Below are positions 23,500 through 50,886 of a stretch of 64,000 nucleotides of DNA, in pieces (positions within the stretch are counted from its first letter, which is position 1; each line of letters begins with the position of its first letter). A program made the position numbers and the translations under genes. The notes beneath the pieces are model-generated. The model was not told the DNA's origin. It did no database searches and saw only the letters and a program-made list of their open reading frames with translations. The stretch is from Oxynema aestuarii AP17. GTDB lineage: Bacteria > Cyanobacteriota > Cyanobacteriia > Cyanobacteriales > Laspinemataceae. Location of the stretch: positions 5,877,299-5,941,298 of the forward strand of contig NZ_CP051167.1 of the NCBI RefSeq assembly GCF_012295525.1, written 5' to 3'.

Positions 23500-25569
23500 A
23501 TGGAAGCAATCTATCAGTATGCCTGGCTGATTCCAGTCCTGCCATTGGCAGGAGCGATGCTGGTCGGTCTAGGTCTGATTTCTTATAACCAAGCGACAAA
23601 TCGCCTCCGGCAAATCAACGCCATTGCGATCGTGTCCCTTTTGGGTATGTCTACAGTCTTGTCTTTCGCCTTACTGTGGAGCCAAATTCAAGGACACGAA
23701 CCGTACCTTCGCACCCTCGAATGGGCGGCAGCCGGAAATTTTCACCTGACGATGGGCTACACCATCGACCACCTGTCGGCCTTGATGCTAGCCGTAGTGA
23801 CGACGATCGCCTTTCTGGTGATGGTCTACACCGACGGTTACATGGCTCACGACGGCGGCTACGTGCGGTTTTATGCGTACTTGAGCCTATTTAGCTCTTC
23901 GATGTTGGGGTTGGTCATCAGTCCCAACTTGGTACAAGTTTATATTTTCTGGGAACTGGTCGGCATGTGTTCCTACTTGCTGATCGGGTTCTGGTACGAT
24001 CGCCAAGCGGCTGCCGATGCCTGTCAAAAAGCCTTCGTCGTCAACCGTGTCGGCGACTTCGGCTTGCTGTTGGGAATGCTCGGACTCTATTGGGCGACCG
24101 ATAGCTTTGACTTTCAAATTATCGGCGATCGCCTCCAAGACCTGGTACAGTCCGGCAACCTCGGCGCCGGAATTGCCGCGATCTTCGCGATCTTGGTCTT
24201 CCTCGGTCCAGTTGCCAAGTCTGCCCAATTCCCCTTACACGTCTGGCTTCCCGACGCGATGGAAGGTCCGACGCCGATCTCGGCCCTCATTCACGCCGCT
24301 ACCATGGTCGCCGCCGGAGTCTTCCTGATCGCCCGCATGTATCCGGTGTTCGAGCCGATCCCGGTGGTCATGGACACGATCGCCTGGACCGGATGCTTTA
24401 CCGCCTTCCTCGGCGCCACGATCGCCCTGACCCAGAACGATATCAAAAAAGGACTCGCCTATTCCACCATTTCCCAACTCGGCTACATGGTCATGGCGAT
24501 GGGGGTCGGCGCTTACGGCGCCGGACTGTTCCACCTGATGACCCACGCCTATTTCAAAGCGATGCTCTTCCTCTGCTCCGGTTCGGTCATCCACGGCATG
24601 GAAGGCGTCGTCGGTCACGACCCGATTCTCGCTCAAGACATGCGCTTGATGGGCGGCTTACGCAAATACATGCCGATTACCGCCGCCACCTTCGCGATCG
24701 GAACCCTCGCCATTTGCGGGATTCCTCCCTTCGCCGGATTCTGGTCTAAAGACGAAATCCTCGGCGCCGCCTTAGAAGCCAACCCGGCCCTGTGGCTGAT
24801 CGGCTGGCTGACCGCCGGAATGACCGCCTTCTACATGTTCCGGATGTACTTCCTCACCTTTGAAGGCCCCTTCCGAGGCAACGAAACCCACATCCGCAAA
24901 GAACTGCTCGAAGAAGCCGCCAGCATGGAAGCCGAACCCGCCCTCGCCTTCGGTCCGGGCGCGATGGATCCGAAAGAACTCGAAAGCGGTCACGACAGTC
25001 ACGGGCATCATAGTGAATTCCCGCACGAATCTCCCCTGACGATGACCCTTCCCTTGATGGCCCTCGCCGTTCCGTCGATCTTCATCGGTCTGTTGGGAAT
25101 GCCGTTTGCCAACTACTTCGAGCAATTCATTCACGCCCCCAACGAAAGCCTCGCCGAAGTCCTCGAACATGCGGAAGAATTCGAGTTGAGTCACTTCGTG
25201 GTTGAAGCGGGCGCCTCGGTCGGCATCGCCTTAATCGGCATTACCGTAGCGTCGTTGATGTACCTCAGCCGCAAGATCGATGTCGGGGCGATCGCCGACA
25301 AAATTCGCCCCCTCTACAACTTCTCGCGCAACAAATGGTACTTCGACGAAATCTATAACTTGCTCTTCGTCATCGGTTCGCGCCGCTTGGCCCGTCAAGT
25401 CCTCGAAGTGGACTATCGCATCGTCGATGGCGCCGTCAACCTCACCGGATTGATCGCCGTCATTAGCGGTGAAGGCTTGAAATACTTCGAGAACGGACGC
25501 GCCCAATTCTACGCCCTGATCGTCTTTGTCGCCGTTCTTGGGTTGGTCATTCTCTCTGGAATCACCTAA
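23500..25569 (+). CDS. ndhF: NAD(P)H-quinone oxidoreductase subunit 5 (NDH-1 NdhF, F1-like by length)
   Basis: 689 aa polytopic protein; MEAIYQYAWLIPVLPLAG start and proton-pumping antiporter-like motifs throughout. Confidence 0.9.
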   Translation: MEAIYQYAWLIPVLPLAGAMLVGLGLISYNQATNRLRQINAIAIVSLLGMSTVLSFALLWSQIQGHEPYLRTLEWAAAGNFHLTMGYTIDHLSALMLAVVTTIAFLVMVYTDGYMAHDGGYVRFYAYLSLFSSSMLGLVISPNLVQVYIFWELVGMCSYLLIGFWYDRQAAADACQKAFVVNRVGDFGLLLGMLGLYWATDSFDFQIIGDRLQDLVQSGNLGAGIAAIFAILVFLGPVAKSAQFPLHVWLPDAMEGPTPISALIHAATMVAAGVFLIARMYPVFEPIPVVMDTIAWTGCFTAFLGATIALTQNDIKKGLAYSTISQLGYMVMAMGVGAYGAGLFHLMTHAYFKAMLFLCSGSVIHGMEGVVGHDPILAQDMRLMGGLRKYMPITAATFAIGTLAICGIPPFAGFWSKDEILGAALEANPALWLIGWLTAGMTAFYMFRMYFLTFEGPFRGNETHIRKELLEEAASMEAEPALAFGPGAMDPKELESGHDSHGHHSEFPHESPLTMTLPLMALAVPSIFIGLLGMPFANYFEQFIHAPNESLAEVLEHAEEFELSHFVVEAGASVGIALIGITVASLMYLSRKIDVGAIADKIRPLYNFSRNKWYFDEIYNLLFVIGSRRLARQVLEVDYRIVDGAVNLTGLIAVISGEGLKYFENGRAQFYALIVFVAVLGLVILSGIT

Positions 25570-25666
25570 AGTTGTTTCGGGTTCTTCGTTCGTTTTCGCG
25601 GCGAACCCCATTCCCCGGCGGACGGGGAACCTCGAACCGACGAACTATCATCCATCCTGAACACAT

Positions 25667-27238
25667 ATGGCTGATTTTCCCTGGCTGACAACTATTATTC
25701 TGTTACCGATCGCGGCGACCTTGCCCCTGCCGTTCTTGCCGGACAAAGACGGCAAAACGGTACGCTGGTACGCCCTGATCGTCGGGTTAATCGACTTTGC
25801 CTTAATCGTCTACGCCTTTTGCACCCAATACGAGCTGGGCAATCCAGACCTCCAACTTTTTGAAAGTTACTCCTGGGTCGCCCCCCTCGATCTGAATTGG
25901 TCCGTGGGCGCCGATGGCTTGTCGATGCCCCTGATTATCCTGACCGGGTTCATCACCACCCTGGCGATGCTCGCCGCGTGGCCCGTCACCCTCAAACCCA
26001 AACTGTTTTACTTCCTAATGCTGGCCATGTACGGCGGTCAAATCGCCGTGTTTGCCGTGCAGGACATGCTGTTGTTTTTCTTGGTTTGGGAACTGGAGTT
26101 AATCCCGGTTTACCTGCTGCTGTCGATTTGGGGCGGTAAAAAGCGCCTCTACGCAGCGACTAAGTTCATTCTCTACACCGCAGGGGGTTCCCTGTTTATC
26201 TTGATTGCCGCCTTGGCGATGGCCTTTTACGGCGATACGGTCACTTTCGACATGAGCGCGATCGCCGCCAAAGATTACGCCATTAACGCCCAATTGCTGC
26301 TCTACGCGGCCTTTTTCATCGCCTACGCCGTCAAGTTACCGATTTTTCCCTTACACACCTGGCTCCCCGACGCCCACGGCGAAGCGACGGCTCCCGTTCA
26401 CATGCTCCTCGCCGGAATTCTCCTCAAAATGGGCGGTTATGCCTTAATTCGCATGAACGCCGGGATGCTCCCCGACGCCCACGCGATTTTTGCTCCCGTG
26501 TTAGTCATTCTCGGCGTCGTCAATATCGTCTACGCGGCGCTGACTTCCTTCGCCCAACGCAACCTCAAGCGCAAGATCGCTTATTCGTCGATTTCCCACA
26601 TGGGATTCGTCCTCATCGGTCTCGGTTCGTTTACCGATTTGGGACTGAGTGGGGCCGTGTTGCAAATGGTCTCCCACGGGTTGATCGGGGCGAGTTTGTT
26701 CTTTATGGTGGGGGCGACTTACGATCGCACTCACACCCTGATGCTCGACGAAATGGGCGGCGTCGGTCAAAAAATGCGCAAGTCTTTCGCCATGTGGACG
26801 ACCTGTTCCCTGGCGTCTTTGGCCCTGCCGGGAATGAGTGGTTTTGTGGCCGAATTGATGGTTTTTGTGGGATTTTCGAGCAGCGACGCTTACAGCACCC
26901 CGTTTAAGGTGGTCGTCGTCTTCTTGGCGGCGGTCGGCGTCATTTTGACCCCGATTTACCTCCTCTCGATGCTGCGCGAGATGCTCTACGGTCCGGAGAA
27001 TAAGGAGTTGATCGAACACGAAGCTTTGGTCGATTCGGAACCGCGCGAGGTGTTTATTATCGCGTCGCTGTTGGTTCCGATTATCGGGATCGGCTTGTAT
27101 CCGAAGTTGGTCACCCAGATTTACGATGCGACCACGGTGCAGTTGACCGCGAGATTGCGCGACTCGGTGCCGAGTTTGGGTAAGGGGACTTCGATCGCCT
27201 CGACCCCTTTACAAGCGCCCGCGATCGGCGATCGTTAG
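25667..27238 (+). CDS. ndhD: NAD(P)H-quinone oxidoreductase subunit 4 (NDH-1 NdhD, D1-like by length)
   Basis: 523 aa; [15 protein letters not shown]… antiporter-like subunit. Confidence 0.85.
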
Positions 27239-29063: not shown

Positions 29064-29473
29064 TGAGGATCGGATGAAACCAATCCTATTGTAGGAACAG
29101 ACCGGGGAAGTCAGGAATAGGAGCAATGGACGACTTTAGCGATCGCCCTCGACTGGATAGCGATCTCGATTGGTTAGTTGATGTTTCCATAGATGCAAGT
29201 TTGTTCGCTCGGTTGCGCGTGCAACACTACTGAGCAGATCTTTTAACTTGCTCGATTAATTTGCGAACGGTAAATACTTTAAAAGAGCATTTACCCAAAC
29301 CTATATTCAATCAAATTAAATGAAGTGATTCCCATCATTTAAAACTTAACTTGAGTCGATTTTCAATCCGCCCACTTCATTGAAAACCCATTTCATCTCC
29401 ATTTCATATTTATTTGTCAGAGTAAGAACAACTTGCCAAAGTTCCTCGATACCTTACTCCCGACAACAAACCG

Positions 29474-31015
29474 ATGAAACCTCGAACTTCATGGCGTCGA
29501 TGGGGTGCGATCGCCCTCAGTACCGTGTTAGCCTTAAGCTTAGGTAGCCGCGCGATCGCCGAACGACGCAACCTCGTTTCCCACCCGCGCACCCCCTACC
29601 GCCTCGCCTTCTACAACCGCCACAACCGTAGCTATCGTGTCGCCGGGGCGCTGCACTTCGCCCACAGCAAACTGCACGACGTTTTATTACTCACTCCCTT
29701 CAAAAATCACAGCGCCGAAGACGCCAAACTCTACGCCGAAATTATCGATTTTTACAACAATCCGCCGCGTATCGAACCCTCCATGGAACTGTACGCCCCC
29801 TACAGCGCCCGTGCAACTTGGCGGTTATTTCTCACTATCGATTCGATTCACCTCCTCCACGAGATGACCGAGGATATTATGTCCGATGCGGATATTCCTT
29901 GGAACCAGAAAGGAAAAGCCCTCTACGAAGCCTACGAATACTACAAATCCACCTATTCCGACATCGCCCTCAGTCCCGCGCCCCTAGATGTCACCATGCG
30001 CCGCGCCGCCGTGATGATGAAGCCCTACTTCAGCCTCACGCGCAACTACTATCCCCAATCGAATAACTTTTTCTATGCAGCACACTGGTGGCACCCCGCC
30101 GTTTACGAATCGATGATGGTCAGTGGGAACGACAGCGAACAGGACGCCACGATGCAACGGATGGAAGACTTATTTCAAGCGCAAGTCGTCCCCGACCCGC
30201 CATTGAGGATGATTTTATCCCGCGAAGGAATGCCGCGTTACAGTCGCCTCTCTCCGGAAACGGCGAACATTTTCGATAACCTGCACATGCTGCACGGGAT
30301 TACATACGATATTTTCGCCTATGACGGATGGACTGTGGAAGAAAAACGCGCCGAACTCTATCGCGTTCTCGATGCAATGAGTTATCAGCCCGGAGATGAA
30401 AAATTGGTGCGTAAATTTACGACACCCAAGCCAGAAATTAACCCGTTAGTTTATGACCAGTGGGTGAAAAGTCCCGAAGGCGCGATGAGTCAGATGATGT
30501 TAGAAATGCTCGATGAAATGATGCCGATGATGGCGAATTCTTCTGGCGTACACGGACACCAGACTCACGCCAATAGGGAAACGTCGCAACCTCATGATTC
30601 CCACGATGAAGAGGGTGAAAATCATGACAACCATGACGGTCATCGCGGTCATGGGAATGATGAGAATCATCATCAAGATGACGATCGCGATCGTCAGGCT
30701 AACTCTAATCTTTCCGAGATGACAATGTCCGCAGAAATGCAGGAGATGCACGAGCAATTACGGACGCAATTAAAACTTAAGTTAACTCCCGGAATTCAAG
30801 AGGGCGAAATTCCCGGATCGTTTGCAGATGCAATGCACGCGATGATGCCAGGGATGGAGATGTCTTCTCATTCGATGAAGGCGGGAGAGTCCAATCCGAA
30901 GATGGTAGAAATGATGCTAGAAGGATGGCGTCAGAAATACGGAGATTTAGCGGATATTGAGGGAATTGATATGGAACGCGATCCGTCTCCCTCCGAGTTA
31001 TCTCGTAGAGAGTAA
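29474..31015 (+). CDS. Secreted protein with novel N-terminal domain and C-terminal His-rich plus Met-rich (MxxM) metal-binding-like tail
   Basis: Signal peptide MKPRTSWRRWGAIALSTVLALSLGSRAIA; His-rich stretch HGHQTHANRETSQPHDSHDEEGENHDNHDGHRGHGNDENHHQDDD; Met-rich motifs MMLEMLDEMMPMM, MHAMMPGMEMSSHSM, MVEMMLEGW. Confidence 0.7.
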   Translation: MKPRTSWRRWGAIALSTVLALSLGSRAIAERRNLVSHPRTPYRLAFYNRHNRSYRVAGALHFAHSKLHDVLLLTPFKNHSAEDAKLYAEIIDFYNNPPRIEPSMELYAPYSARATWRLFLTIDSIHLLHEMTEDIMSDADIPWNQKGKALYEAYEYYKSTYSDIALSPAPLDVTMRRAAVMMKPYFSLTRNYYPQSNNFFYAAHWWHPAVYESMMVSGNDSEQDATMQRMEDLFQAQVVPDPPLRMILSREGMPRYSRLSPETANIFDNLHMLHGITYDIFAYDGWTVEEKRAELYRVLDAMSYQPGDEKLVRKFTTPKPEINPLVYDQWVKSPEGAMSQMMLEMLDEMMPMMANSSGVHGHQTHANRETSQPHDSHDEEGENHDNHDGHRGHGNDENHHQDDDRDRQANSNLSEMTMSAEMQEMHEQLRTQLKLKLTPGIQEGEIPGSFADAMHAMMPGMEMSSHSMKAGESNPKMVEMMLEGWRQKYGDLADIEGIDMERDPSPSELSRRE

Positions 31016-31078: not shown

Positions 31079-31864
31079 GTGAAAAGCATGAAATCTCGGT
31101 TGTGGCCGATCGCGCCTTCCGTGCTGGCTATTTTAACGGGAGTAATCGCAGGATTGGGAATCTCAAAAGGGGCGATCGCTGCCGACCATCTTAACTTAGA
31201 GGAAGGACTTCCCGCCGAAGTCGAAGATGCGTATCCCCTCGGTTTTGGTGGCTTTGAATTTCAAGGAGTGTTCCATTACGATCGCGTTGAAGGTGAAGAT
31301 ATTTTTACCCTCGATCCTCGTTTAGAATGGGGTTTTGCTCGCAACTGGCAGGCAAAACTATCAGTTCCTGTCGTCCTCGGATCGGAAGAAAATGATATTG
31401 GCGATATCTCTGCAGAAGTTTTTTATAACTTTAATACGGAGACGTTAAGCACTCCGGCGATCGCCCTTTCCGCAAGTGCCGATTTCCCTACAGGTTCCGA
31501 TAGTGAAGGTATCGATCCAACTTTAAAATTATTAGTCACAAAAAGTATTGGAACTGGCAACAATCTCGATCGCCTGCACTTAAATCTTGGTTGGACTTAT
31601 AATAGCGAACAGCAAGATAACGAGCGGCAAAATGCTCTTTCGGTTGCATTAGGATACAGTCGTCGGTTGGGGTCGGAAACTATTTTAGTTTCGGATATTG
31701 TTTTCGAGCAGGAAAAAGAGGAAGATGCCGAAATATACTTAATCGAACTCGGCGTTCGTCACCAACTCTCTCCCCTCAATGTTTTAGCCATTGGCGCGGG
31801 AGTCGGACTCGGCGAAGAATCTCCTGATTTACGCATAACTGCAGGATTTCAACAGTCGTTTTAA
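31079..31864 (+). CDS. Outer-membrane beta-barrel protein (transporter-like)
   Basis: Signal peptide; alternating amphipathic strands; terminal aromatic …ITAGFQQSF. Confidence 0.55.
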   Translation: MKSMKSRLWPIAPSVLAILTGVIAGLGISKGAIAADHLNLEEGLPAEVEDAYPLGFGGFEFQGVFHYDRVEGEDIFTLDPRLEWGFARNWQAKLSVPVVLGSEENDIGDISAEVFYNFNTETLSTPAIALSASADFPTGSDSEGIDPTLKLLVTKSIGTGNNLDRLHLNLGWTYNSEQQDNERQNALSVALGYSRRLGSETILVSDIVFEQEKEEDAEIYLIELGVRHQLSPLNVLAIGAGVGLGEESPDLRITAGFQQSF

Positions 31865-32092: not shown

Positions 32093-32371
32093 GTGTTGAT
32101 TAATAAAGCTAGATTGCGTCAATTGCATCGTACTCTAGCCCCCATCATGGTTTTTCCTCTTCTCCTGACTTTAATTACCGGATTTGCTTTTCAATTTGCC
32201 GCACTTAATGATAAAAGTAGCGAATTTCTCTGGTTACTCGATCTCCATCGCGGTAAATTTGGCAGAATTGATTTACAAATGATTTACCCTTTTCTTAATG
32301 GGCTGGGTTTATTAACTTTAGTGATGACTGGGGTATTGATGTGGTTGCAAATTCCACCGCGTCGAAGTTAA
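32093..32371 (+). CDS. PepSY-associated-TM-like small membrane protein
   Basis: 92 aa; two TM helices flanking DLHRGKFG. Confidence 0.4.
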   Translation: MLINKARLRQLHRTLAPIMVFPLLLTLITGFAFQFAALNDKSSEFLWLLDLHRGKFGRIDLQMIYPFLNGLGLLTLVMTGVLMWLQIPPRRS

Positions 32372-32619
32372 TTCAATCAAATAAAGAGCAATTATCAACC
32401 ATCGTTGTAACCCTAGAGAGATGAAATTTTAACCCGATTTTCCCCTAGATAAATGCGAGGTAGGTGGGTGAATTTTTTATGGTAATGATAGCTTAAATCG
32501 AAGGAGTAAAATGATAAAAATTAGACGGAATACTCGTTTTTTAGTTGAGAAAACTTGCAAGATGTCTGCACCACAGGTTTAATGCTTATGATTTTTGTAT
32601 GTTTCTTTCTTGCTGTTAT

Positions 32620-33318
32620 ATGAAACTACTGTTAGTTGAAGATGAACCCGATCTCGGATCTGCGATTAAACGCACTTTAACTCAGGAGGCTTATGTTGTC
32701 GATTGGTTGCAAGATGGATGCGAAGCCTGGAGCTATTTAGAAACGGATTGGACGCAATATACTCTGGCTATTGTTGATTGGTTGTTACCGGGTTTATCTG
32801 GTTTGGAATTGTGCAAGCGATTGCGTCGCCAAAATAGTCCGTTACCCGTGCTGATGTTGACGGCGAAAGATACGGAAGCGGATAAGGTGGAAGGGTTGGA
32901 TGCTGGCGCGGATGATTATTTAGTCAAGCCATTTGGGATGGCGGAGCTATTGGCGCGGTTGCGGGCGCTGCAGCGACGATCGCCTCAATTGCAAGTCCAA
33001 CCTTTACAAGTGGGAAATCTAAGGTTGGATTACACCAAAAAATCGTTATTTTATCGGGAAAGTTCGGGAAAAGATCGCGAAATTTCGTTAACGAATAAGG
33101 AGTTTCAGTTATTGGAATATTTTATGCGCCATCCCAACCAAATTCTCGATCGCGATCGCATTTTATCCCAACTGTGGGAGGTCGGTGCAGAACCGGAAAG
33201 TAATGTGGTCGCCGCTCAAATTCGCTTGTTACGTCGCAAGTTATCTCAATGTCAATATCCGGAGTTTATTGAGACGGTTTATGGATTGGGGTATCGCTTC
33301 AATTCCGATCGCTGCTAA
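32620..33318 (+). CDS. OmpR-family response regulator (REC + winged-helix)
   Basis: MKLLLVEDEPDLG, phospho-acceptor region IVDWLLPGLSG, LTAKD; C-terminal trans_reg_C LTNKEFQLLEYFMRHPNQ…YGLGYRF. The track ORF starts at 32545; MKLLLVEDE is the likely start. Confidence 0.8.
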   Translation: MKLLLVEDEPDLGSAIKRTLTQEAYVVDWLQDGCEAWSYLETDWTQYTLAIVDWLLPGLSGLELCKRLRRQNSPLPVLMLTAKDTEADKVEGLDAGADDYLVKPFGMAELLARLRALQRRSPQLQVQPLQVGNLRLDYTKKSLFYRESSGKDREISLTNKEFQLLEYFMRHPNQILDRDRILSQLWEVGAEPESNVVAAQIRLLRRKLSQCQYPEFIETVYGLGYRFNSDRC

Positions 33319-33556
33319 TGGTTGACGATCGTGTTAATTTTTGTAAAAAATACGATTTTGTCGCGATTTTTTTGGTTTTGGCTCTTGTTTTTGACCGTCG
33401 CTTCTGGTAAAATTTTATATTATAATCGGGATCTTGACAAAAAAATTAAATTTAGTTATATCTCCATTATCTAAAATAATAGCATGAAATCAAGTTTTCC
33501 GCGCAAGAATTTTCCCTACTTTTTTAGCCACCAAGCGCCCTACAATCTACAATCCT

Positions 33557-34939
33557 ATGAATCCCCATCCCTTATTCCAAAAAACGCGCTGGCGGTTGGC
33601 GTGTTGGTATGCCGGAGTTATGGGAATCATCTTGAGTTTGTCCGGGTTTGGGGTTTACGAGGCGATCGCCCACGCCCATCGGATGACCCTCGATCGCGAA
33701 TTGGAATCGGTCGCGGGAACCTTGCACGACACCTTAGAAACGGTATTAGAAACTCCAGGACAGCTAGAAAGCGACGCCCTGAGATTTTTACCGGAACTGT
33801 GCCTGAGTGGGGTTTCGTGCGCGATCGCCCCCGGAAAAGAACCGATTCTCGGATCCCTGACCCAAAATCACTACTATTTGCGCCTGCTCGATCGGTCAGG
33901 AAGACCGATCGCCGTCGCCGGAGTGCTACCGGAAGGCTTGCAGATCCCGCCACCGCAGGTCCGATGGCAGACGATCGCCGATCCGACCGCGACGGGGCGC
34001 TATCACCAACTCTCACAAATGCTGCACACCCGCGACGGCCAAAATTGGGGATACTTGCAATTGGGGCGATCGCTCGAAGAATGGGACAACTACCTGCGGG
34101 CCGTCCGCATCGTCCTCATCCTCGGTTTACCCGTCGCCCTCGGCTTTACCGTCGTCGCCGGATGGATTCTCGCCGGAGTGGCGATGCAACCGATTTACCA
34201 CTCCTACCGCCACATCCAACAATTTACCGCCGATGCGGCCCACGAACTGCGAACGCCCCTCGCCGCCATTCGCGCCACTGTCGAAACCACCTTGCGATCG
34301 CCCGTTTTGAACGAAAACGACGCCCGCGAAACCCTCAACAGCGTCGAACGGCAAAACCTGAGACTGTCCGCCTTAGTGACCGATTTACTGTTGCTCTCGC
34401 GACTCGATCGCCAACAAGCACCGGAAAAACGACAACGGTGCAGCCTCGACGACTCGATCTCCGACGTGGTCGAAGAACTCGCCCCGTTGGCGATCGCCGC
34501 CGAGGTGCAATTGCGCGCCCAATTCAACGGGGATCTCCCCTGTGACGTCTGGGGTCACGAATCCCAACTGTATCGAGTGCTGTCCAACTTGGTCGCCAAT
34601 GCGATTCAATATACCCCCGCCGGGGGCGAAGTCGTCGTGAAGCTAGACAGTACCCCCCACTGGGCGATCGTCCGGGTCGTCGATACGGGAATCGGTATTC
34701 CTCCCGAACAACGAGGGCGCATTTTCGATCGCTTCTACCGGGTTCGCAACGATCGCTCCCGCCATACCGGAGGATCGGGATTGGGATTGGCGATCGTGCG
34801 GGCGATCGTTCAAAGTCACCAGGGGACGATCGACGTGGAAAGCGCCATCGGTCGAGGGAGTACCTTTACATTGAAATTACCCCGCGATCGCAAAACGGCG
34901 GCGATTTCATCGCAATTTCATCCTTGTTTGACAGAATAG
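33557..34939 (+). CDS. Sensor histidine kinase with about 150-aa periplasmic sensor domain
   Basis: Two TM segments; HisKA H-box AAHELRTPLAAI; HATPase N (NLVANAIQYT), G1 (DTGIGI), G2 (GGSGLGLAIV). Confidence 0.8.
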   Translation: MNPHPLFQKTRWRLACWYAGVMGIILSLSGFGVYEAIAHAHRMTLDRELESVAGTLHDTLETVLETPGQLESDALRFLPELCLSGVSCAIAPGKEPILGSLTQNHYYLRLLDRSGRPIAVAGVLPEGLQIPPPQVRWQTIADPTATGRYHQLSQMLHTRDGQNWGYLQLGRSLEEWDNYLRAVRIVLILGLPVALGFTVVAGWILAGVAMQPIYHSYRHIQQFTADAAHELRTPLAAIRATVETTLRSPVLNENDARETLNSVERQNLRLSALVTDLLLLSRLDRQQAPEKRQRCSLDDSISDVVEELAPLAIAAEVQLRAQFNGDLPCDVWGHESQLYRVLSNLVANAIQYTPAGGEVVVKLDSTPHWAIVRVVDTGIGIPPEQRGRIFDRFYRVRNDRSRHTGGSGLGLAIVRAIVQSHQGTIDVESAIGRGSTFTLKLPRDRKTAAISSQFHPCLTE

Positions 34940-35009: not shown

Positions 35010-35345
35010 GTGAACACCGAATTCAAACCGTCTCCAATCCTTGCCCTGACTCTAGCAACGATCGCCTCGGGAGCGATCGCGATCCAGTCCCCCGAGGCGA
35101 TCGCCCACGCCCCGAAATATCACCAGCGCTCTGAAAGTGAATCGAGTCCCTCGACCTCCCCTAAACCCGCATCCCAGAACGGATCCGAACCCTCTCAAGA
35201 CCCGACAGCCACCGTCGCCAGCCCTCACTCACCACGGACCGAACAGGGGAACTTACACCCGGGATGGAAAGAATCGGTTTTGGGTCTCCTATTCGGCGGT
35301 TACGGTCTTTTAGTCTGGCTCAAACAGCACCTGCATCAACCATGA
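35010..35345 (+). CDS. Small Ser/Pro-rich protein with N-terminal signal and C-terminal TM (doubtful)
   Basis: ORF only; low-complexity composition; overlaps the start of the next gene. Confidence 0.25.
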   Translation: MNTEFKPSPILALTLATIASGAIAIQSPEAIAHAPKYHQRSESESSPSTSPKPASQNGSEPSQDPTATVASPHSPRTEQGNLHPGWKESVLGLLFGGYGLLVWLKQHLHQP

Positions 35346-36337
35346 ACCACTCTTGTTTCTTTCGGATCGCCCGCTCGACGGCGATCGCCCTGTTCGCCGG
35401 AACTCTTACCCTGGGATGTTCGCCACGTCCCGAACTGCAGACGTTTTATCCGGCGCCGATGCCTTCTCCCTCGGTCCCGGCGACGCCGACGCGATCGCCC
35501 GCCGAACTCGCAGCACTGACCCGCGCCCCCAACTGGCAGCAGGACAACCACGTTCACGCCCTCGGCGTCGATCCGGACAATCCCGAAGTTCTCTACATTG
35601 CCACTCATTACGGCTTGGTACGACGCAGCGAAGACGGACAGTGGTATTGGGTCGGCGACGATCGCTCGGATTATATGGGATTTGCCGTGGATCCGGGCGA
35701 TCGCGACCGCTTTTATATGAGCGGACACCCGCCGACCGGAGGGAATTTGGGATTTCGAGTCACCGAGAATCGCGGTAAAGATTGGAAAACCGAGTCGATG
35801 TCCGGAGTAGATTTCCACGCGATCGCCGTCGCCCCGGCAGATCCGAAAACGATTTACGGATGGGCGACCTCCGGAGAAGTCGGCTTTTTCGTTTCCCGCG
35901 ATCGCGGTCAAACCTGGACCGAACTGCGACCGATCGGCTTGGAAGAGATGCCCTTTAATTTAATCGTGGATCCCGCTCGCCCGGATCGGGTATTTGCTAC
36001 GACCCGGGCGGGATTGTACCAAAGCAATAATAGCGGTCGCAACTGGGCGTTAGTCCCCAACACCGACACGGCGCCGATCGTCGGTCTCGCCGTTCTCGAA
36101 GACGGGACGGAAAGTACCCTCTACGGCTATCGCTTGCTCGACTCGGCTCCGGGACTGTATCGCAGTAACAATGGCGGTCAAACTTGGGAAACCTTCGGGG
36201 AAGGCATTGAAGGCATCGTCGTGCATTTGGTGCAGGCGCCGGGAAATTCCCAAATCCTTTATGCCGCGAACCAGGACAATGGTATCTTCCAATCGAGAGA
36301 TCGCGGCGCCACCTGGACGGCGATCGCGACTCCCTAG
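35342..36337 (+). CDS. Lipoprotein with BNR/sortilin-like beta-propeller (Ycf48-like fold) repeats
   Basis: Lipobox LTLGCS; repeated S.D.G.TW motifs (SEDGQWYW, TENRGKDWK, SRDRGQTWT, SNNSGRNWA, SNNGGQTWE, SRDRGATWT). Confidence 0.6.
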   Translation: MNHSCFFRIARSTAIALFAGTLTLGCSPRPELQTFYPAPMPSPSVPATPTRSPAELAALTRAPNWQQDNHVHALGVDPDNPEVLYIATHYGLVRRSEDGQWYWVGDDRSDYMGFAVDPGDRDRFYMSGHPPTGGNLGFRVTENRGKDWKTESMSGVDFHAIAVAPADPKTIYGWATSGEVGFFVSRDRGQTWTELRPIGLEEMPFNLIVDPARPDRVFATTRAGLYQSNNSGRNWALVPNTDTAPIVGLAVLEDGTESTLYGYRLLDSAPGLYRSNNGGQTWETFGEGIEGIVVHLVQAPGNSQILYAANQDNGIFQSRDRGATWTAIATP

Positions 36338-45396: not shown

Positions 45397-47043
45397 CTAT
45401 ACCGTCAATTCCAAACAAGCGGCCAAATCTTCATCCGGCGTCGAAATTGCTTTGAGGCCATATTTTTTCGATAACAACCCAAACACATTCGGCGAAATAA
45501 ATGCGGGCAACGTCGGACCCAAGCGGATATTTTCGATGCCGAGATATAACAAGGTCAGCAAAATCGCCACCGCTTTTTGTTCGTACCACGAGAGAATCAT
45601 CGACAACGGCAACTGATTGACCTCGACCCCGAAGGCATTCGCCAATCCCAAGGCAATCTGCAGGGCCGAATAGGCATCGTTACACTGTCCCACGTCCATC
45701 AGTCGCGGAATGCCGCCGATCTCGCCGAGGTCTTTGTCGAAAAAGCGGAATTTTCCGCAAGCTAAGGTCAAAACTACGCAATCGGACGGCACTTTTTCGA
45801 CTAATTCCGTGTAGTAATTGCGGGTCGGTTTGGCCCCGTCGCAACCGCCGACGAGGAAGAAATGACGGATTTTACCTTGTTTGACTGCTTCGACGACTTC
45901 TCCCGCCACGCTTAAGACTGCATTGCGCGCAAATCCAGTCATCACTTGACGGGAATCGCCCGTTTCGGTAAAGCCGGGTAAATTTTGGGCGATCGCAATT
46001 AACGCCGCGAAATCGTCATTTTTGATATGAGGCAAGTCGGGCCACCCCACCGGACCGAGAGTATAGACTCGATTTTTATAACTCTCGTGAGGGGGCATCA
46101 AACAGTTGGTGGTCATCAGAATCGGACCGGGAAAGGCGGCGAATTCTTTGGTTTGATTCTGCCACGCCGTCCCGTAGTGACCGTACAGGTGCGGGTATTT
46201 TTGTTTCAAACCGGGATAACCGTGGGCGGGCAGCATTTCGCCGTGGGTGTAGATCGAGATGCCCGTTGCTTCGGTTTGTTGTAACAAGTGTTCCAGGGCT
46301 TTGAGGTCGTGACCGGAGACTAAAATCGCTTTACCGACGCGCGGACCGAGGGGAACGGCGGTGGGGACGGGATGACCGTAGGTTCCGGTATTGCCCGCGT
46401 CGAGGAGTTCCATGGTCCGCAGGTTAATTTCGCCGAGTTTGAGGGCGAGATCGACCCAATCGTCCAAGGTTAGATCGTTGCGGTCGAGGGCGGCTAAGGC
46501 TTCGTGACAGAAGGCGTAAACGCGATCGTCTTCTTGGGATAATTCTCGGGCGTGGTAGGCGTAGGCGGCGATCCCTTTGAGTCCGTAGAGGACGGTTAAT
46601 TTTAAGGAGAAGATATCGACGTCGATCGCCGCTTTGGAGATAAATTCGTATTCGAGGTCTCGTCCTTGTTGGATTAACTCGTCGAGTCCGGTGGCGGGTT
46701 GGAAAGTGGCGGCGCCTTCGGGAATCGTCGCTTGGGGGGCGATCGCCTGTAACTGCTGTTTTAAGCCGTCTCTCAAGGCGATCGCGCGATCGATATAATT
46801 GACGAAGCTTTGCGGGTCGAAATTGACGTTCGTTAAGGTGGCGAATAGGGTTTCGCAACTGAAGCGGTCGGCGTCGCGATCGATGATACCGTAGTCGCGG
46901 GCGGCGATCGCCACCTGTCCCAATCCGCGTAAACTATGAATTAATAAGTCTTGTAAGGCGTCGAGTTCGGGGCTTTTCCCACAGGCGCCCCACTGATAAC
47001 ATCCTTCGCCTCGGCTGGTTTGTTCGCATTGGGTACAATACAT
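45397..47043 (-). CDS. hcp: Hydroxylamine reductase / hybrid-cluster protein
   Basis: N-terminal MYCTQCEQTSRGEGCYQWGACGK cysteine cluster; 548 aa; Hcp/CODH-fold motifs. Confidence 0.9.
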   Translation of the reverse strand: MYCTQCEQTSRGEGCYQWGACGKSPELDALQDLLIHSLRGLGQVAIAARDYGIIDRDADRFSCETLFATLTNVNFDPQSFVNYIDRAIALRDGLKQQLQAIAPQATIPEGAATFQPATGLDELIQQGRDLEYEFISKAAIDVDIFSLKLTVLYGLKGIAAYAYHARELSQEDDRVYAFCHEALAALDRNDLTLDDWVDLALKLGEINLRTMELLDAGNTGTYGHPVPTAVPLGPRVGKAILVSGHDLKALEHLLQQTEATGISIYTHGEMLPAHGYPGLKQKYPHLYGHYGTAWQNQTKEFAAFPGPILMTTNCLMPPHESYKNRVYTLGPVGWPDLPHIKNDDFAALIAIAQNLPGFTETGDSRQVMTGFARNAVLSVAGEVVEAVKQGKIRHFFLVGGCDGAKPTRNYYTELVEKVPSDCVVLTLACGKFRFFDKDLGEIGGIPRLMDVGQCNDAYSALQIALGLANAFGVEVNQLPLSMILSWYEQKAVAILLTLLYLGIENIRLGPTLPAFISPNVFGLLSKKYGLKAISTPDEDLAACLELTV

Positions 47044-48609: not shown

Positions 48610-50886
48610 TTAATTATCCCTACCTTTAAGTAAGGGGCGCAGTCCGTTGACCCCAGCCGCGATCGCCGATCCGTTATGGACCACCGCCGCCGCTAACGGA
48701 TGAAGTCCTACGGTCGTTGCTAACAATAAAGCCGCCACATTTGGAATCACCGAAAGTCGGGTATTTTCACCGATCAATTGCTGGGTTTGTTGGGCTAGGG
48801 CGATCGCCTTGACCAGACTCTCTAAATTGTTTTCCATCAACACCACGTCCGCCGTTTCCCGGGCCACTTCGGATCCTTCGCCAAAGGACACGGAAACATC
48901 CGCATAAGCCAACGCTGCCGAGTCATTAATCCCGTCGCCGACAAACGCCACCGTTTTTCCCGATTCGTGCAGTTCGCGAACCACCGCAGCTTTTTGTTCC
49001 GGGAAGGCGTCGGCGTGAATGTTCTCCGTGGCGATCCCCAATTGTGAGGCAACGGTAACGGCCCGTTGGCGGCAATCTCCGGTGAGAATGTGAATGTCGA
49101 TCCCTTGCGCCTGCAAGGCTTGAATCGTCCCTTTCGTTTCGGGACGTAAGGGGTCGGTATATTCGATCGCCCCGAGTAATTCACCATTGCTGGCGACGTA
49201 AATCGCCGCCGATCCGCGCAAGTCGGGATACACTTCATAGATCCGTTCTAGGTCGATCTGTTCCTTCGCCATGAAGCGATCGCAGCCGACGCGAACCTCT
49301 TCTCCCTCAATTATAGCCCGCACGCCGAGACCGACTTGATAATCCCAGCCATCGCGCTCTAACGCCTCTACCCCGCATTCTTGGGCGTAATTGAGCAGTG
49401 CACAGGCGATCGGATGCGTGAGGCGTCGTTCCGCAGTGGCGGCGAAAGCTAACAACCGTCGTGGGTCGGCACCGTGGATCGTTCTCACTCCAGTGACGAC
49501 GACATCTCCCTGAGTGAGCGTCCCGGTCTTGTCAAACACCACGGCATCTACGTGAGCCAGTTGTTCCAAACTGCGCCCGCTTCGGATGAGGATGCCGCGC
49601 CGTGCTGCCGCACTCATCGACGCCAGTACCGTAGTCGGCACGGAAACGCGAATCCCGGTCATAAAATCGAGGGTCAGAATTGCTGCGGCTCTCGCCATGC
49701 TTCCCGTCACGACTAAGACCCCGGTCGAGAACGCGAAGGCGGGCAAAATCGCTTTGTCGGCCAGTTGGGCCGCGTAGTTTTCCATGCGCGTATCGCCGAC
49801 GGGAGCCTCTCGGACGAGGGTGATACTTTGTCCGGCGCGAGTATCCAGACCGGTTTTCTCGGTCAGGATATACAAATGACCTTCGCGTACCAACGTAGAG
49901 GCATAGACCGGATCGCCGACCGATCGCCGCACGGGAACCGACTCGCCTGTGAGTTTTTGCTGGTCGATCGTGGCTTGACCCCGGAGGATCGATCCGTCGA
50001 TCGGGATTTGTTCGCCGGGATAGACGATGACTGTATCCCCGGGACGGACGCGATCGAGGGCGATTTGCACTTTCATCCCGTCCCGTTCTACCCAGACGAC
50101 GCGATCGAGGGAATCGATCAATTCCGAGGCGTGGCGGGTCGTACTGCGGGCGGTGCGATCGCGGATCAGGTCCCCGAGTTTGTGCAGTAACAAGATCGTC
50201 GAAGGGGTGAGCGGATTGCCCTGTAACGTCGTCAGGGTCAGGGCCATCAAGTCGAGACAGTCGATGTTAATCCGCTTATCTTGCCACAAACTTTCGAGGG
50301 CTTTTTGCGCTACGGGCAGACTTCCGACGGCGATCGTCCCGACCACGGCTAGGGTCGGAATCGGCAACCCCATCGGTCCGGCGAGCAAGGCGAGGAGGCT
50401 GGCGACCAGGGGCAATTTCAGTTCGGACCAGGCGCTTTCCGCCTCCCCGTCGCCGTCAGCTCCCGGCGCCGGGACGATCGCCGTCGCCGCCAAGTCGATC
50501 AAGTTGCCCAAATGCTGCTGCATCTCCTCTACGGAAACGCGATCGCCGTGATAGTGGAGGGCGACGGACATCGCCTGGGGTTTCATGCGGACCTCGGTGA
50601 TGTACTCGTCAGCTTCGAGCAACATTTGCAATCGGTAGACGTAATGAGCGTCGCAACCGAGGCGAGGTAACCGCAACCGCAACCGCCCGGGAATACTGTG
50701 AATCACTTGATGGGGAATCCCCGGGCGCGCAGTCCGTGTTGACGGAGTTTGAACGGGGGAAATCGGTGAGTGCAGCGCTTCGCTATTGTCAAGGGCTTGG
50801 TCGATGGATTTGACCAGTGCGAGTGACCCTTTTTGCCTTGCGACTTTTTGTTGAGACTTGAAATGGACTGCGAGGGCTGCTGCCAT
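48610..50886 (-). CDS. P-type ATPase, P1B-like (heavy-metal-type) architecture but without a canonical CPx motif or CxxC metal-binding domain
   Basis: TGES (KLTGESVPV), DKTGTLT, GDGINDSAAL, TGD motifs. TM segments flank the ATP-binding domain. The position aligned to CPC reads SVPTT. The N-terminus has an HMA-like region without Cys pairs (IHSIPGRLRLRLP). Confidence 0.7.
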   Translation of the reverse strand: MAAALAVHFKSQQKVARQKGSLALVKSIDQALDNSEALHSPISPVQTPSTRTARPGIPHQVIHSIPGRLRLRLPRLGCDAHYVYRLQMLLEADEYITEVRMKPQAMSVALHYHGDRVSVEEMQQHLGNLIDLAATAIVPAPGADGDGEAESAWSELKLPLVASLLALLAGPMGLPIPTLAVVGTIAVGSLPVAQKALESLWQDKRINIDCLDLMALTLTTLQGNPLTPSTILLLHKLGDLIRDRTARSTTRHASELIDSLDRVVWVERDGMKVQIALDRVRPGDTVIVYPGEQIPIDGSILRGQATIDQQKLTGESVPVRRSVGDPVYASTLVREGHLYILTEKTGLDTRAGQSITLVREAPVGDTRMENYAAQLADKAILPAFAFSTGVLVVTGSMARAAAILTLDFMTGIRVSVPTTVLASMSAAARRGILIRSGRSLEQLAHVDAVVFDKTGTLTQGDVVVTGVRTIHGADPRRLLAFAATAERRLTHPIACALLNYAQECGVEALERDGWDYQVGLGVRAIIEGEEVRVGCDRFMAKEQIDLERIYEVYPDLRGSAAIYVASNGELLGAIEYTDPLRPETKGTIQALQAQGIDIHILTGDCRQRAVTVASQLGIATENIHADAFPEQKAAVVRELHESGKTVAFVGDGINDSAALAYADVSVSFGEGSEVARETADVVLMENNLESLVKAIALAQQTQQLIGENTRLSVIPNVAALLLATTVGLHPLAAAVVHNGSAIAAGVNGLRPLLKGRDN

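Follow-up and report, generated by a model that had tools for sequence, protein, structure and literature searches.

The window analysed here, 64,000 nucleotides of the genome of the cyanobacterium Oxynema aestuarii AP17 (contig NZ_CP051167.1, positions 5,877,299 to 5,941,298), contains a gene for a 513-aa protein that has no Cys and is 100% identical to the Oxynema aestuarii hypothetical protein WP_168571349.1. It is followed on the same strand by genes for an outer-membrane barrel, a small membrane protein and a two-component system (Table 1). The N-terminus of the protein is Sec-signal-like (...SRAIA followed by ERRN), and hydrophobic N-termini are found across the whole family. Tat export was considered for the RR pair at residues 8-9, but a twin-arginine-like N-terminus occurs in only 6 of 116 family members, and export is therefore most likely through the Sec pathway. 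An earlier sequence-only reading had described a secreted protein with three Met clusters and a His-rich acidic stretch, encoded in a string with an outer-membrane barrel and a two-component system; the three clusters, the stretch and the neighbouring genes are all present, and a Sec-type signal peptide is predicted.

Table 1. Features at the locus, with positions given in the window
Feature	Position	Strand	Basis or remark
Tandem box ATTTCAT-CTCC-ATTTCAT, putative CopR-type response-regulator site	29390..29407	+	67 bp upstream of the start codon
Putative -10-like hexamer TAAGAA	29423..29428	+	15 nt after the box; spacing as in the pSYSX copB promoter
Gene under study, 513-aa secreted protein, unnamed family	29474..31015	+	Exact open reading frame
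Signal peptide, aa 1-29, predicted cleavage between AIA and ERR	29474..29560	+	Sequence reading
Helical-domain repeat 1, aa 42-165, with H61, H64, H68, D69, D123, H126, H129, E130, D134	29597..29968	+	hhalign against repeat 2; invariant residues
Helical-domain repeat 2, aa 183-305, with H204, W205, H207, Y211, E212, D268, N269, H271, H274, D279	30020..30388	+	hhalign; invariant residues
Met block 1, aa 337-357, AMSQMMLEMLDEMMPMMANSS, predicted helix	30482..30544	+	8 Met in 21 aa
His/Asp/Glu-rich disordered insertion, aa 358-415	30545..30718	+	11 His in 58 aa; pLDDT <50
C-terminal Met-rich helical region, aa 416-513	30719..31012	+	14 Met in 98 aa; family-wide conservation
12-stranded outer-membrane barrel, Phenol_MetA_deg / COG4313 / FapF family, obligate partner	31079..31864	+	Predicted mature N-terminus A-D-H
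92-aa two-helix membrane protein, PepSY_TM-like	32093..32371	+	PF03929 at 1.6e-7
OmpR-family response regulator (CopR/NrsR type)	32545..33318	+	NF041734 RppA, 402 bits (cut-off 250); likely start ATG at 32620
Sensor histidine kinase (CopS/NrsS type)	33557..34939	+	NF041735 RppB, 656 bits (cut-off 400)
Second exact box ATTTCAT-CGCA-ATTTCAT	34904..34921	+	At the 3' end of the kinase gene; ORF 35010 follows after about 90 bp
Probable further regulon members: 111-aa secreted ORF (35010-35345) and F510_1955-family BNR beta-propeller (35264-36337)	35010..36337	+	NF045728, 228 bits

A homologue search returned 543 matches at 55-82% identity from more than 10 phyla, none of them named, and a relative of the protein is encoded in 299 of 185,579 species genomes. 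The carriers belong to Cyanobacteria, Planctomycetota, Nitrospirota, Acidobacteriota, Bacteroidota, Proteobacteria and other phyla, and include Methylobacter, Nitrospira and Brocadiaceae. Conservation of this degree across phyla marks a genuine family under strong constraint. The UniRef names 'DUF1570' and 'DUF1800', carried by three members, lack Pfam support even at E ≤ 10 and were for this reason treated as unreliable automatic names. No published description of the family was found in the literature searched, including a 2025 review on cyanobacterial copper handling.

The barrel gene lies directly 3' of the orthologue in 77 of the 81 loci compared, and upstream of the relative in a distant branch of the family; at least 10 distant members are fusions of the two proteins. 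In some relatives the fusion partner is a PQQ-type beta-propeller or the membrane domain DUF2231. On this genomic evidence, the barrel is the obligate partner of the protein. The neighbours of the two-gene module in the 81 loci include YHS/HMBD P1B-ATPase (24 loci), the copper storage protein Csp (14), CusA (14), multicopper oxidase (10), DUF305 (8), HMBD-CusB (7), MerR (7) and CsoR (3); at least one of these copper-type neighbours was found in 44 of the 81 loci, and about 40% of the loci have no copper gene within 8 kb. Three contexts of the distant branch were looked at, none of which is a copper island. Because the protein is paired with the barrel and the module is found mostly in copper-resistance gene clusters, it is probably a hitherto undescribed part of the handling of toxic copper.

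The AlphaFold model of the protein is all-alpha, with pLDDT above 90 throughout the helical domain. The sequence-only reading had not recognised this N-terminal domain, and searches of Pfam, NCBIfam and PDB sequences likewise gave no match; against PDB sequences, both single-sequence and profile searches with the protein returned nothing below E = 1. It does, however, match itself, as repeat 1 aligns with repeat 2 over 119 columns (hhalign probability 99.5%, E 1.1e-22). The core conserved in the superfamily consists of six His (H64, H126, H129, H204, H271 and H274) and the acidic residues D134, E212, D268 and D279; the six His as well as D134, E/D212, D268, N269 and D279 are retained in at least 92% of 39 distant relatives, and H61, H68 and H207 are additional His residues of the copper-island family. 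The domain is a tandem duplicate of a helical unit of ~120 aa built around a conserved six-His core, and this core suggests that metal chemistry takes place in the domain in addition to the tail. Helix positions and pseudo-symmetry indicate that the six core His may be clustered in space.

The known families compared with the protein gave no match. DUF305/CopM (PF03713), which had already been set aside from the sequence, gave no Pfam match at E ≤ 10 and an hhalign probability of 0.1-0.2% against 8 neighbouring DUF305 proteins. The multicopper oxidases (CueO/PcoA; PF07732, PF07731, PF00394) gave no Pfam match, and the all-alpha model is not a beta-sandwich; true multicopper oxidases are encoded by the separate neighbour genes in 10 loci. 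For Csp (PF03860) the hhalign probability was at most 0.1%, and the protein has zero Cys. No fold or sequence match to tyrosinase/hemocyanin, hemerythrin or ferritin-like di-iron proteins was found.

The C-terminal part had been read as one His- and Met-rich tail of 150 aa. Its enrichment is real, since none of the window's 31 other ORFs of 250 aa or more exceeds 6 His in 58 aa, 4 Met in 21 aa or 9 Met in 98 aa; it extends, however, over some 177 aa (residues 337-513) and is not a single unit, as conserved Met parts that are predicted to be ordered (pLDDT above 90) stand against a lineage-specific disordered His tract. Met block 1 is kept family-wide (median 8.5 Met) and is modelled as a helix over residues 337-356 with pLDDT of about 92-94, and the C-terminal region has the conserved motifs KLKLTPG..GE..GS, LMPDM and MVEAML.GW, with pLDDT of 86-95 over residues 421-500. 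Residues 358-415, on the other hand, comprise 19% His and 26% Asp+Glu, and the insertion at this site varies by lineage from a median of 24 aa with 1 His up to 110 aa, with at least 5 His in 20 of 106 family members. The His tract is thus, by this comparison, dispensable in most of the family, and in the model the Met motifs belong to the fold and not to a loose tail. Met- or His-rich tails are again present in the distant relatives. MxxM and MMxxM clusters in periplasmic proteins, such as the Met-rich inserts of CueO/PcoA and the CusF/CopC-type proteins, are generally regarded as sites that bind or recruit Cu(I)/Ag(I). Unlike in those proteins, the Met clusters found here are carried on amphipathic helices that are conserved and, by prediction, pack against the novel helical domain, and they are placed neither in a T1-site loop nor in a small beta-barrel.

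The product of the barrel gene scores above the PF13557 gathering score, and its 12-stranded barrel can be superposed on both 4rl8 and 5o65. Its closest structural relative is FapF, and homology to PcoB/CopB was found neither by profile match nor as the closest structural neighbour. Unlike the known FapF/COG4313 (PF13557) members, which have been linked with amyloid subunit export or hydrophobic-compound uptake, it belongs to a subfamily tied to copper islands and having an invariant N-terminus, X-D-H-x-NLEEGLPxxVEDAYP. X-D-H comes right after a canonical A-x-A site, where cleavage is predicted, in 115 of 120 barrel homologues; Tyr replaces the ATCUN-like His in the barrels of the distant branch, and two homologues carry a fused CopZ-type HMA domain. 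As FapF exports polypeptides rather than ions, one may ask whether the barrel is a secretion pore that releases the Met/His-rich protein to the surface or the medium for extracellular copper sequestration. We consider this improbable, as a helical protein of ~45 kDa would have to pass unfolded through a 12-stranded pore and no Fap-like accessory genes were seen in the neighbour survey. Furthermore, the barrel's own invariant, metal-site-like N-terminal motif and the HMA domain on two homologues point to ions, and an even number of strands would, most simply, put a C-terminal fusion in the periplasm.

The tandem box upstream of the gene has half-sites identical to those in the copM and copB promoters on Synechocystis pSYSX, to which CopR has been reported to bind (PMC4284471). 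Only two exact copies of the tandem box occur in the 64 kb. In 15 of 19 cyanobacterial loci the orthologue is preceded, at 70-140 bp, by a box with at most one mismatch, where chance would give 0.02 exact matches in 1.6 Mb; at other loci the variants TAGTAA, TGGAAT and TAAAAA take the place of the -10-like TAAGAA. From the motif and its conservation, the gene is a candidate member of the CopR regulon. The regulator and the kinase of the window both exceed the RppA/RppB equivalog cut-offs and so belong to the CopRS/NrsRS family; the former is 66% identical to pSYSX CopR from residue 26 onward, the latter 50% identical to CopS over its full length. Of 19 cyanobacterial loci, 17 have an RppA/RppB-type two-component system with the module, and orthologues of the PepSY_TM-like protein lie near it in 10 cyanobacterial loci.

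These regulators also bring in a nickel/cobalt module, in which an NrsRS-type sensor would respond to Ni, and the His-rich acidic tract and the ATCUN-like N-terminus of the barrel would bind periplasmic Ni(II). The NCBIfam names RppA/RppB are those of a pair first described as Ni-responsive (PMC4284471), and both Ni(II) and Cu(II) bind to ATCUN motifs and to His tracts. Moreover, the Ni-inducible nrsB promoter has the same -10 region and a related box (TTTTCAC-N4-ATTTCAT, different at 2 positions from the copM/copB-type box), and sensor-domain identities among the kinases compared do not separate CopS-like from other RppB-type kinases; the inducing metal could therefore be nickel or both. However, the copper-responsive pSYSX copR-copS pair is itself named rppA-rppB by PGAP, so that the current RefSeq naming masks copper versus nickel sensors. 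The box in the window has exact CopR-type half-sites and lacks the GGGGAAGGAG element, the counterpart of the published RppA motif. That motif, AAMAWCTCYYWCCCC, gave 38 matches against 32 expected and none upstream of the gene, and control of the RppA/NrsR type through it is accordingly unsupported. In addition, Met-rich motifs usually mark Cu(I)/Ag(I) sites and not Ni sites, the genes near the module in the different phyla are specific to copper (Csp, multicopper oxidase, CusBA with HMBD, CsoR/MerR), and no nrsBACD-like, NikR or RcnA genes were seen beside the module. A nickel/cobalt module is therefore unlikely. The earlier proposal of a periplasmic Cu or Ni/Zn-binding protein is upheld, with copper as the best-supported metal by the neighbours, the CopRS-like regulators and the tandem box.

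We put at roughly 60% the probability that this protein is the periplasmic member of a two-gene module for copper handling, which would work as follows. Once the Sec signal has directed the protein to the periplasm, the six-His core and the carboxylates would form a metal centre, most simply a binuclear one with three His per metal. The Met-rich helices, present in every family member, would pack onto this core, capture Cu(I) and hand it to the His/carboxylate centre, at which copper could be held or oxidised; the optional disordered His/Asp/Glu tract would add Cu(II) buffering or capture in some lineages, Oxynema included. The protein would act together with the adjacent barrel, whose flexible N-terminus begins with the ATCUN-like X-D-H and the invariant acidic motif, and the pair may move copper out of the periplasm, as has been proposed for PcoA-PcoB. 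The module, the small membrane protein and the CopRS-type system appear to form one autoregulated operon under the CopR-type box, with a logic as in copMRS, although the single operon is provisional because gaps of 228-248 bp separate some of the genes.

Periplasmic copper detoxification is known mainly through multicopper oxidases, Cus-type pumps and CopC/CusF-type chaperones, and in cyanobacteria through CopM. The module resembles PcoA-PcoB (E. coli pco and the two-gene pcoAB operon of Caulobacter vibrioides), in which a Met-rich periplasmic copper protein is encoded beside a 12-stranded barrel with copper-binding residues in its flexible N-terminal region. The resemblance extends to the two-gene arrangement and the copper-resistance context, and for PcoA-PcoB a hand-off from the periplasmic protein to the barrel has been proposed; in Caulobacter vibrioides, pcoAB encodes a periplasmic protein and a 12-stranded barrel with a His/Met N-terminal tail (PMC12509749). 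CopM of Synechocystis copMRS, a DUF305 protein whose binding of copper, periplasmic or extracellular, makes the cell copper-resistant (PMC4335983), is likewise secreted, helical, Met/His-containing, encoded upstream of a CopR/CopS-type system and preceded by the same type of tandem box. Unlike CopM, to which it has no sequence relationship, the present protein is ~2.5 times larger, with a duplicated domain, a six-His core and an obligate barrel, and because DUF305 co-occurs in 8 loci the two are not interchangeable. Csp, a neighbour in 14 loci, is also a helical bundle lined by one kind of metal-ligand residue, but Csp uses Cys and binds many Cu(I), whereas our protein has no Cys and no profile similarity to it.

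A more specific version, which we offer as a tentative possibility, is that the duplicated helical domain, a fold without a solved relative, is a periplasmic copper enzyme or copper store of a new class. A His6(+3)/carboxylate multinuclear copper centre, supplied by the Met-rich helices, would oxidise or park Cu(I), and the protein would dock on the FapF-type barrel, whose ATCUN-like N-terminus would take up the Cu(II) produced for an energy-independent exit from the periplasm; it would amount to a non-homologous reinvention of PcoA-PcoB in more than 10 phyla. The small His-bearing membrane partners, PepSY_TM-like in cyanobacteria and DUF2231 in the distant branch, might provide a link to membrane electron transfer. 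The conserved module, present in roughly 300 species-level genomes, joins a protein without a named family or solved fold to a channel family not previously linked to metals. If the copper-handling reading is true, it adds a component to bacterial copper handling, a metal-binding fold and a function for this COG4313/FapF barrel subfamily, and further CopRS regulon members are predicted for cyanobacteria.

The six invariant His and the carboxylates in a pseudo-symmetric bundle correspond to the ligand count of type-3 copper and di-iron centres, and 55% identity across phyla is typical of enzymes. A periplasmic metalloenzyme, e.g. a binuclear-copper or di-iron oxidase, might thus act on an organic substrate delivered by a COG4313-type channel, the copper link being one of cofactor supply or a side reaction. 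The channels of this group are named after a phenol-degradation context, and the fusions to a PQQ-type beta-propeller or DUF2231 would also fit. We doubt this explanation, as it finds no counterpart in the folds or sequences of the oxidase and di-iron families compared above, no recurrent catabolic genes were seen in the neighbour survey, and neither Met-/His-rich tails nor a CopR-type promoter would readily be expected of an enzyme with an organic substrate. The least likely alternative is copper acquisition, with the barrel importing copper and the periplasmic protein receiving it for cuproenzyme assembly, which would suit the high copper demand of carriers such as Methylobacter, Nitrospira and Brocadiaceae, the storage function of the Csp neighbours and the copper uptake reported to be facilitated by E. 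coli PcoB (PMC9210255), but which is opposed by the recurrent efflux, detoxification and copper-excess sensor genes (CusBA, P1B exporters, multicopper oxidase, MerR, CsoR) and by the Synechocystis CopRS regulon being induced by copper excess and conferring resistance (PMC4335983, PMC4284471).

Elsewhere in the window, a P1B-ATPase gene (48610-50886) was rejected as a part of the copper-handling module, since its scores are those of the Zn/Cd type and 17 kb separate it from the module. The genes that follow the second exact box may be regulated by it, as suggested by its position, and homologues are found in metal islands on cyanobacterial plasmids.

The open reading frame (ORF) proposed to encode a secreted metal-binding protein, hereafter the target, is real, and its 513-aa product is 100% identical to an Oxynema aestuarii hypothetical protein. 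Its N-terminus reads as a Sec-type signal peptide with predicted cleavage between …SRAIA and ERRN. The His-rich acidic and Met-rich composition pointed out by the sequence-only reading stands out against the window's own proteins: residues 358-415 contain 11 His in 58 aa with 26% Asp+Glu (background maximum 6 His), residues 337-357 contain 8 Met in 21 aa (maximum 4), and residues 416-513 contain 14 Met in 98 aa (maximum 9), while cysteine is absent. Searches of Pfam, NCBIfam and PDB sequences with the protein returned no match, so that its N-domain is indeed unrecognised there, and a barrel gene and a two-component system follow downstream as had been described. No connection to the module, i.e. 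the target and its barrel partner, was seen for the ORFs lying upstream.

Features of the window
Feature	Position	Strand	Remark
Putative NdhF-like and NdhD-like ORFs	23500-27238	+	upstream of target; read from translations
AAA+ ATPase, 566 aa	27426-29126	-	divergent, upstream of target; N-terminal half unannotated
CopR-type box	29390-29407		67 bp ahead of target ATG
Target	29474-31015	+	
Phenol_MetA_deg barrel	31079-31864	+	downstream of target
PepSY_TM-like membrane protein, 92 aa	32093-32371		downstream of target
Response regulator	32545-33318	+	downstream of target
Regulator-kinase gap	33319-33556		238 bp
ORF, 353 aa	33484-34545		other frame, overlaps kinase gene; probably spurious
Histidine kinase	33557-34939		downstream of target
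Second CopR-type box	34904-34921		within 3' end of kinase gene
Ser/Pro-rich secreted ORF, 111 aa	35010-35345		
F510_1955-family BNR beta-propeller protein	35264-36337		annotated 'glycosylhydrolase'
Hybrid-cluster protein (hydroxylamine reductase)	45397-47043	-	
P1B-ATPase	48610-50886	-	above Cd/Zn-type subfamily cut-off, below Cu-type
RND adaptor subunit	61522-62841	+	

A search with residues 30-350 identified 543 relatives (55-82% identity) in Cyanobacteria, Acidobacteriota, Gemmatimonadota, Methylobacter, Planctomycetota, Verrucomicrobiota and other groups, every one labelled hypothetical and none with a Pfam domain; a relative is encoded in 299 of 185,579 species genomes. An 18-sequence alignment told apart three parts that the sequence-only reading had merged. 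These are an N-domain (residues ~42-336), in which ~90 positions are invariant and four motifs of paired His are among them, Met-rich segments, and a His/Asp/Glu tract. The Met-rich segments are common to every family member (median 8.5 Met in the first block and 11 in the last ~81 aa). The tract is the site of a variable insertion (median 24 aa with 1 His), which reaches 110 aa in cyanobacterial and some acidobacterial members, is Met-rich instead of His-rich in some, and has at least five His in 20 of 106 members. The AlphaFold2 model is confident and all-alpha (pLDDT 82.9, pTM 0.81), with pLDDT >90 for the Met-rich helices 337-356 and 420-489 and disorder limited to residues 24-41, 358-405 and 407-412. 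The Met-rich helices are both conserved and predicted to be ordered, and the His tract is optional.

Profile-profile alignment revealed that the N-domain is an internal duplication of residues 42-165 and 183-305 (probability 99.5%, E 1.1e-22, 119 columns), which pairs D123/H126/H129/D134 with D268/H271/H274/D279, and H61/H64/H68/D69 with H204/H207/Y211/E212. When 1.84 billion representatives were searched exhaustively by profile, 335 relatives emerged, the distant ones retaining the N-domain alone. Among 39 distant relatives, at least 92% retain any given one of H64, H126, H129, H204, H271, H274, D134, D268, N269 and D279; position 212 is E or D in all 39, and H61, H68 and H207 are replaced by D, Y and Q. 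The target is secreted and under strong constraint, and its helical core is duplicated and bears a conserved His/carboxylate set, in which six His (one plus two per repeat) and the carboxylates would give the number of ligands that a binuclear centre has. Membership tests for DUF305, multicopper oxidases, Csp, type-3 copper proteins and di-iron bundles all failed, and neither Pfam, NCBIfam and RefSeq annotation nor the literature that could be searched gave a name for the family. The family is therefore new, as its fold probably is too, and its proposed job is of a known kind, i.e. periplasmic and outer-membrane copper resistance.

Eighty loci were fetched from reference genomes and 81 were counted, in 77 of which a barrel HMM placed the barrel directly downstream of the target orthologue on the same strand; two of the other four stop within 150 bp of the target gene. 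Distant-branch loci instead have a homologous barrel directly upstream (E 4e-38 and 3e-19), or fused N-terminally to the helical domain (at least 10 proteins), hence the partnership predates the close family. The barrel is a COG4313/FapF family member by membership test, and failed the test for PcoB. Its predicted mature part starts, right after a canonical A-x-A signal-peptidase site, with an invariant motif, X-D-H-x-N-L-E-E-G-L-P-x-x-V-E-D-A-Y-P, and would form an ATCUN-type Cu(II)/Ni(II) site if cleavage occurs at the predicted position. Of 120 homologues, 115 show this arrangement and 109 have Ala at -1; in distant-branch barrels the start reads T-D-Y-x-N-L-D-D, with Tyr replacing the ATCUN-like His. 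The partner of the target is thus an obligate one, a 12-stranded barrel whose conserved N-terminus resembles a metal site. Secretion of the target through a FapF-like pore would agree with the family of the barrel, and is judged unlikely given this N-terminus. Two barrel homologues (P0379 and P0387) carry a CopZ-type HMA domain at the extreme N-terminus, ahead of a signal-peptide-like hydrophobic segment; since such an arrangement is unusual in an outer-membrane protein, the two could be either genuine fusions or products of merged gene calls.

All genes within ~8 kb of the module were clustered over the 81 loci, and cluster representatives were annotated. The neighbours include YHS/HMBD P1B-ATPases (24 loci), histidine kinases (22), response regulators (19), Csp copper-storage proteins (14), CusA-type RND proteins (14), multicopper oxidases (10), PepSY_TM-like small proteins (10), DUF305 (8), HMBD-CusB (7), MerR (7), OEP (5) and CsoR (3). 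Dedicated copper markers, one or more per locus, occur at 44 of the 81 loci, and at 30 of the 51 having at least 5 kb on both sides; ~40% of these ~8 kb neighbourhoods contain no copper genes, nor were any seen near three distant-branch loci. Representative gene orders are CusB, CusA, HMBD-ATPase, target, barrel (Methylobacter); MerR, Csp, DUF305, target, barrel (a metagenomic contig); target, barrel, DUF305, Csp, ECF sigma factor, YHS/HMBD ATPase (a further locus); and target, barrel, DUF411, histidine kinase, response regulator (Rivularia PCC 7116). A mobilizable plasmid of Methylobacterium fujisawaense (NZ_CP155007.1, 36547-38902) carries a target-barrel pair too, both labelled hypothetical, near IS21 elements, with no copper genes within 10 kb. 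The 92-aa protein has two helices and PepSY_TM-like LHR and LHRG motifs, and 10 cyanobacterial loci keep it close to the module; its place is taken in the distant branch by a DUF2231 membrane domain that adjoins or is fused with the helical domain. Both are small His-bearing membrane proteins. The P1B-ATPase, hybrid-cluster protein and RND adaptor of the window lie 14-30 kb away from the module.

The two-component system of the window is assigned by NCBIfam to RppA (402 bits) and RppB (656 bits), names that go back to the Ni-responsive NrsRS of Synechocystis. The copM-copR-copS-copBAC locus of the Synechocystis plasmid pSYSX (CopR/CopS at NC_005232.1, 35381-37418) is likewise annotated DUF305, rppA, rppB and RND in RefSeq/PGAP; therefore, the equivalog models NF041734 and NF041735 conflate copper and nickel sensors. 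That this pSYSX locus responds to copper is documented (PMC4335983, PMC4284471), and the kinase and regulator of the window are 50% (full length) and 66% identical to CopS and CopR, respectively. The copM and copB promoters contain ATTTCAT-cctg-ATTTCAT and ATTTCAT-cttg-GTTTCAT, the latter followed by …TAAGAAC; the box ahead of the target reads ATTTCAT-ctcc-ATTTCAT, with TAAGAAC at the spacing of the copB promoter. The exact pattern occurs twice in the 64-kb window, and ~42 times in 1.6 Mb of examined DNA versus 0.02 expected. With at most one mismatch allowed, 15 of 19 cyanobacterial loci have it 70-140 bp ahead of the target orthologue; where the two-component system forms a transcription unit of its own, the box always precedes the regulator gene as well. 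A regulator encoded after the barrel in the same orientation, which is the window's arrangement, has no second box ahead of it. This would fit one autoregulated operon like copMRS; the 228-248 bp gaps in the gene string leave room for internal promoters. Synechocystis copR and copS overlap, instead of being spaced as the window's pair is.

The metal could alternatively be nickel: the Ni-inducible nrsB promoter has TTTTCAC-ctga-ATTTCAT and shares the -10 region (supplement of PMC5114575), so that the copper and nickel regulators use paralogous sites, and sensor-domain identities do not tell copper from nickel kinases. The box of the window is an exact CopR-type match without the GGGGAAGGAG element matching the published RppA motif; copper is thus favoured, nickel being possible at the sensor level, and a nickel system as a whole is improbable. 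The sequence-only interpretation is upheld and narrowed to copper, and we put the probability that the module belongs to copper homeostasis at about 0.8.

For the mechanism, our confidence is at best somewhat above even: the Met helices would recruit Cu(I), the His/carboxylate core may bind and possibly oxidise copper, and the barrel would let copper leave the periplasm. Among working analogies Caulobacter pcoAB comes closest: its periplasmic multicopper oxidase acts jointly with a 12-stranded barrel in copper efflux, and the barrel's N-terminal tail, rich in His and Met, stabilises the oxidase (PMC12509749); CopM in copMRS is a second analogy (PMC4335983). An organic-substrate oxidase might also use such a core, and is about as improbable as the nickel system in view of the Met- and His-rich tail of the target and its CopR-type promoter. 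Copper uptake, in which the barrel would import the metal, is the least probable alternative beside the resistance genes of these islands.

The second exact box lies ~90 bp ahead of the Ser/Pro-rich ORF and the BNR protein. Homologues of the latter on cyanobacterial plasmids adjoin DUF305, RND, multicopper oxidase and MerR-type genes; it is therefore probably another uncharacterised metal-stress protein, and its name may be misleading.
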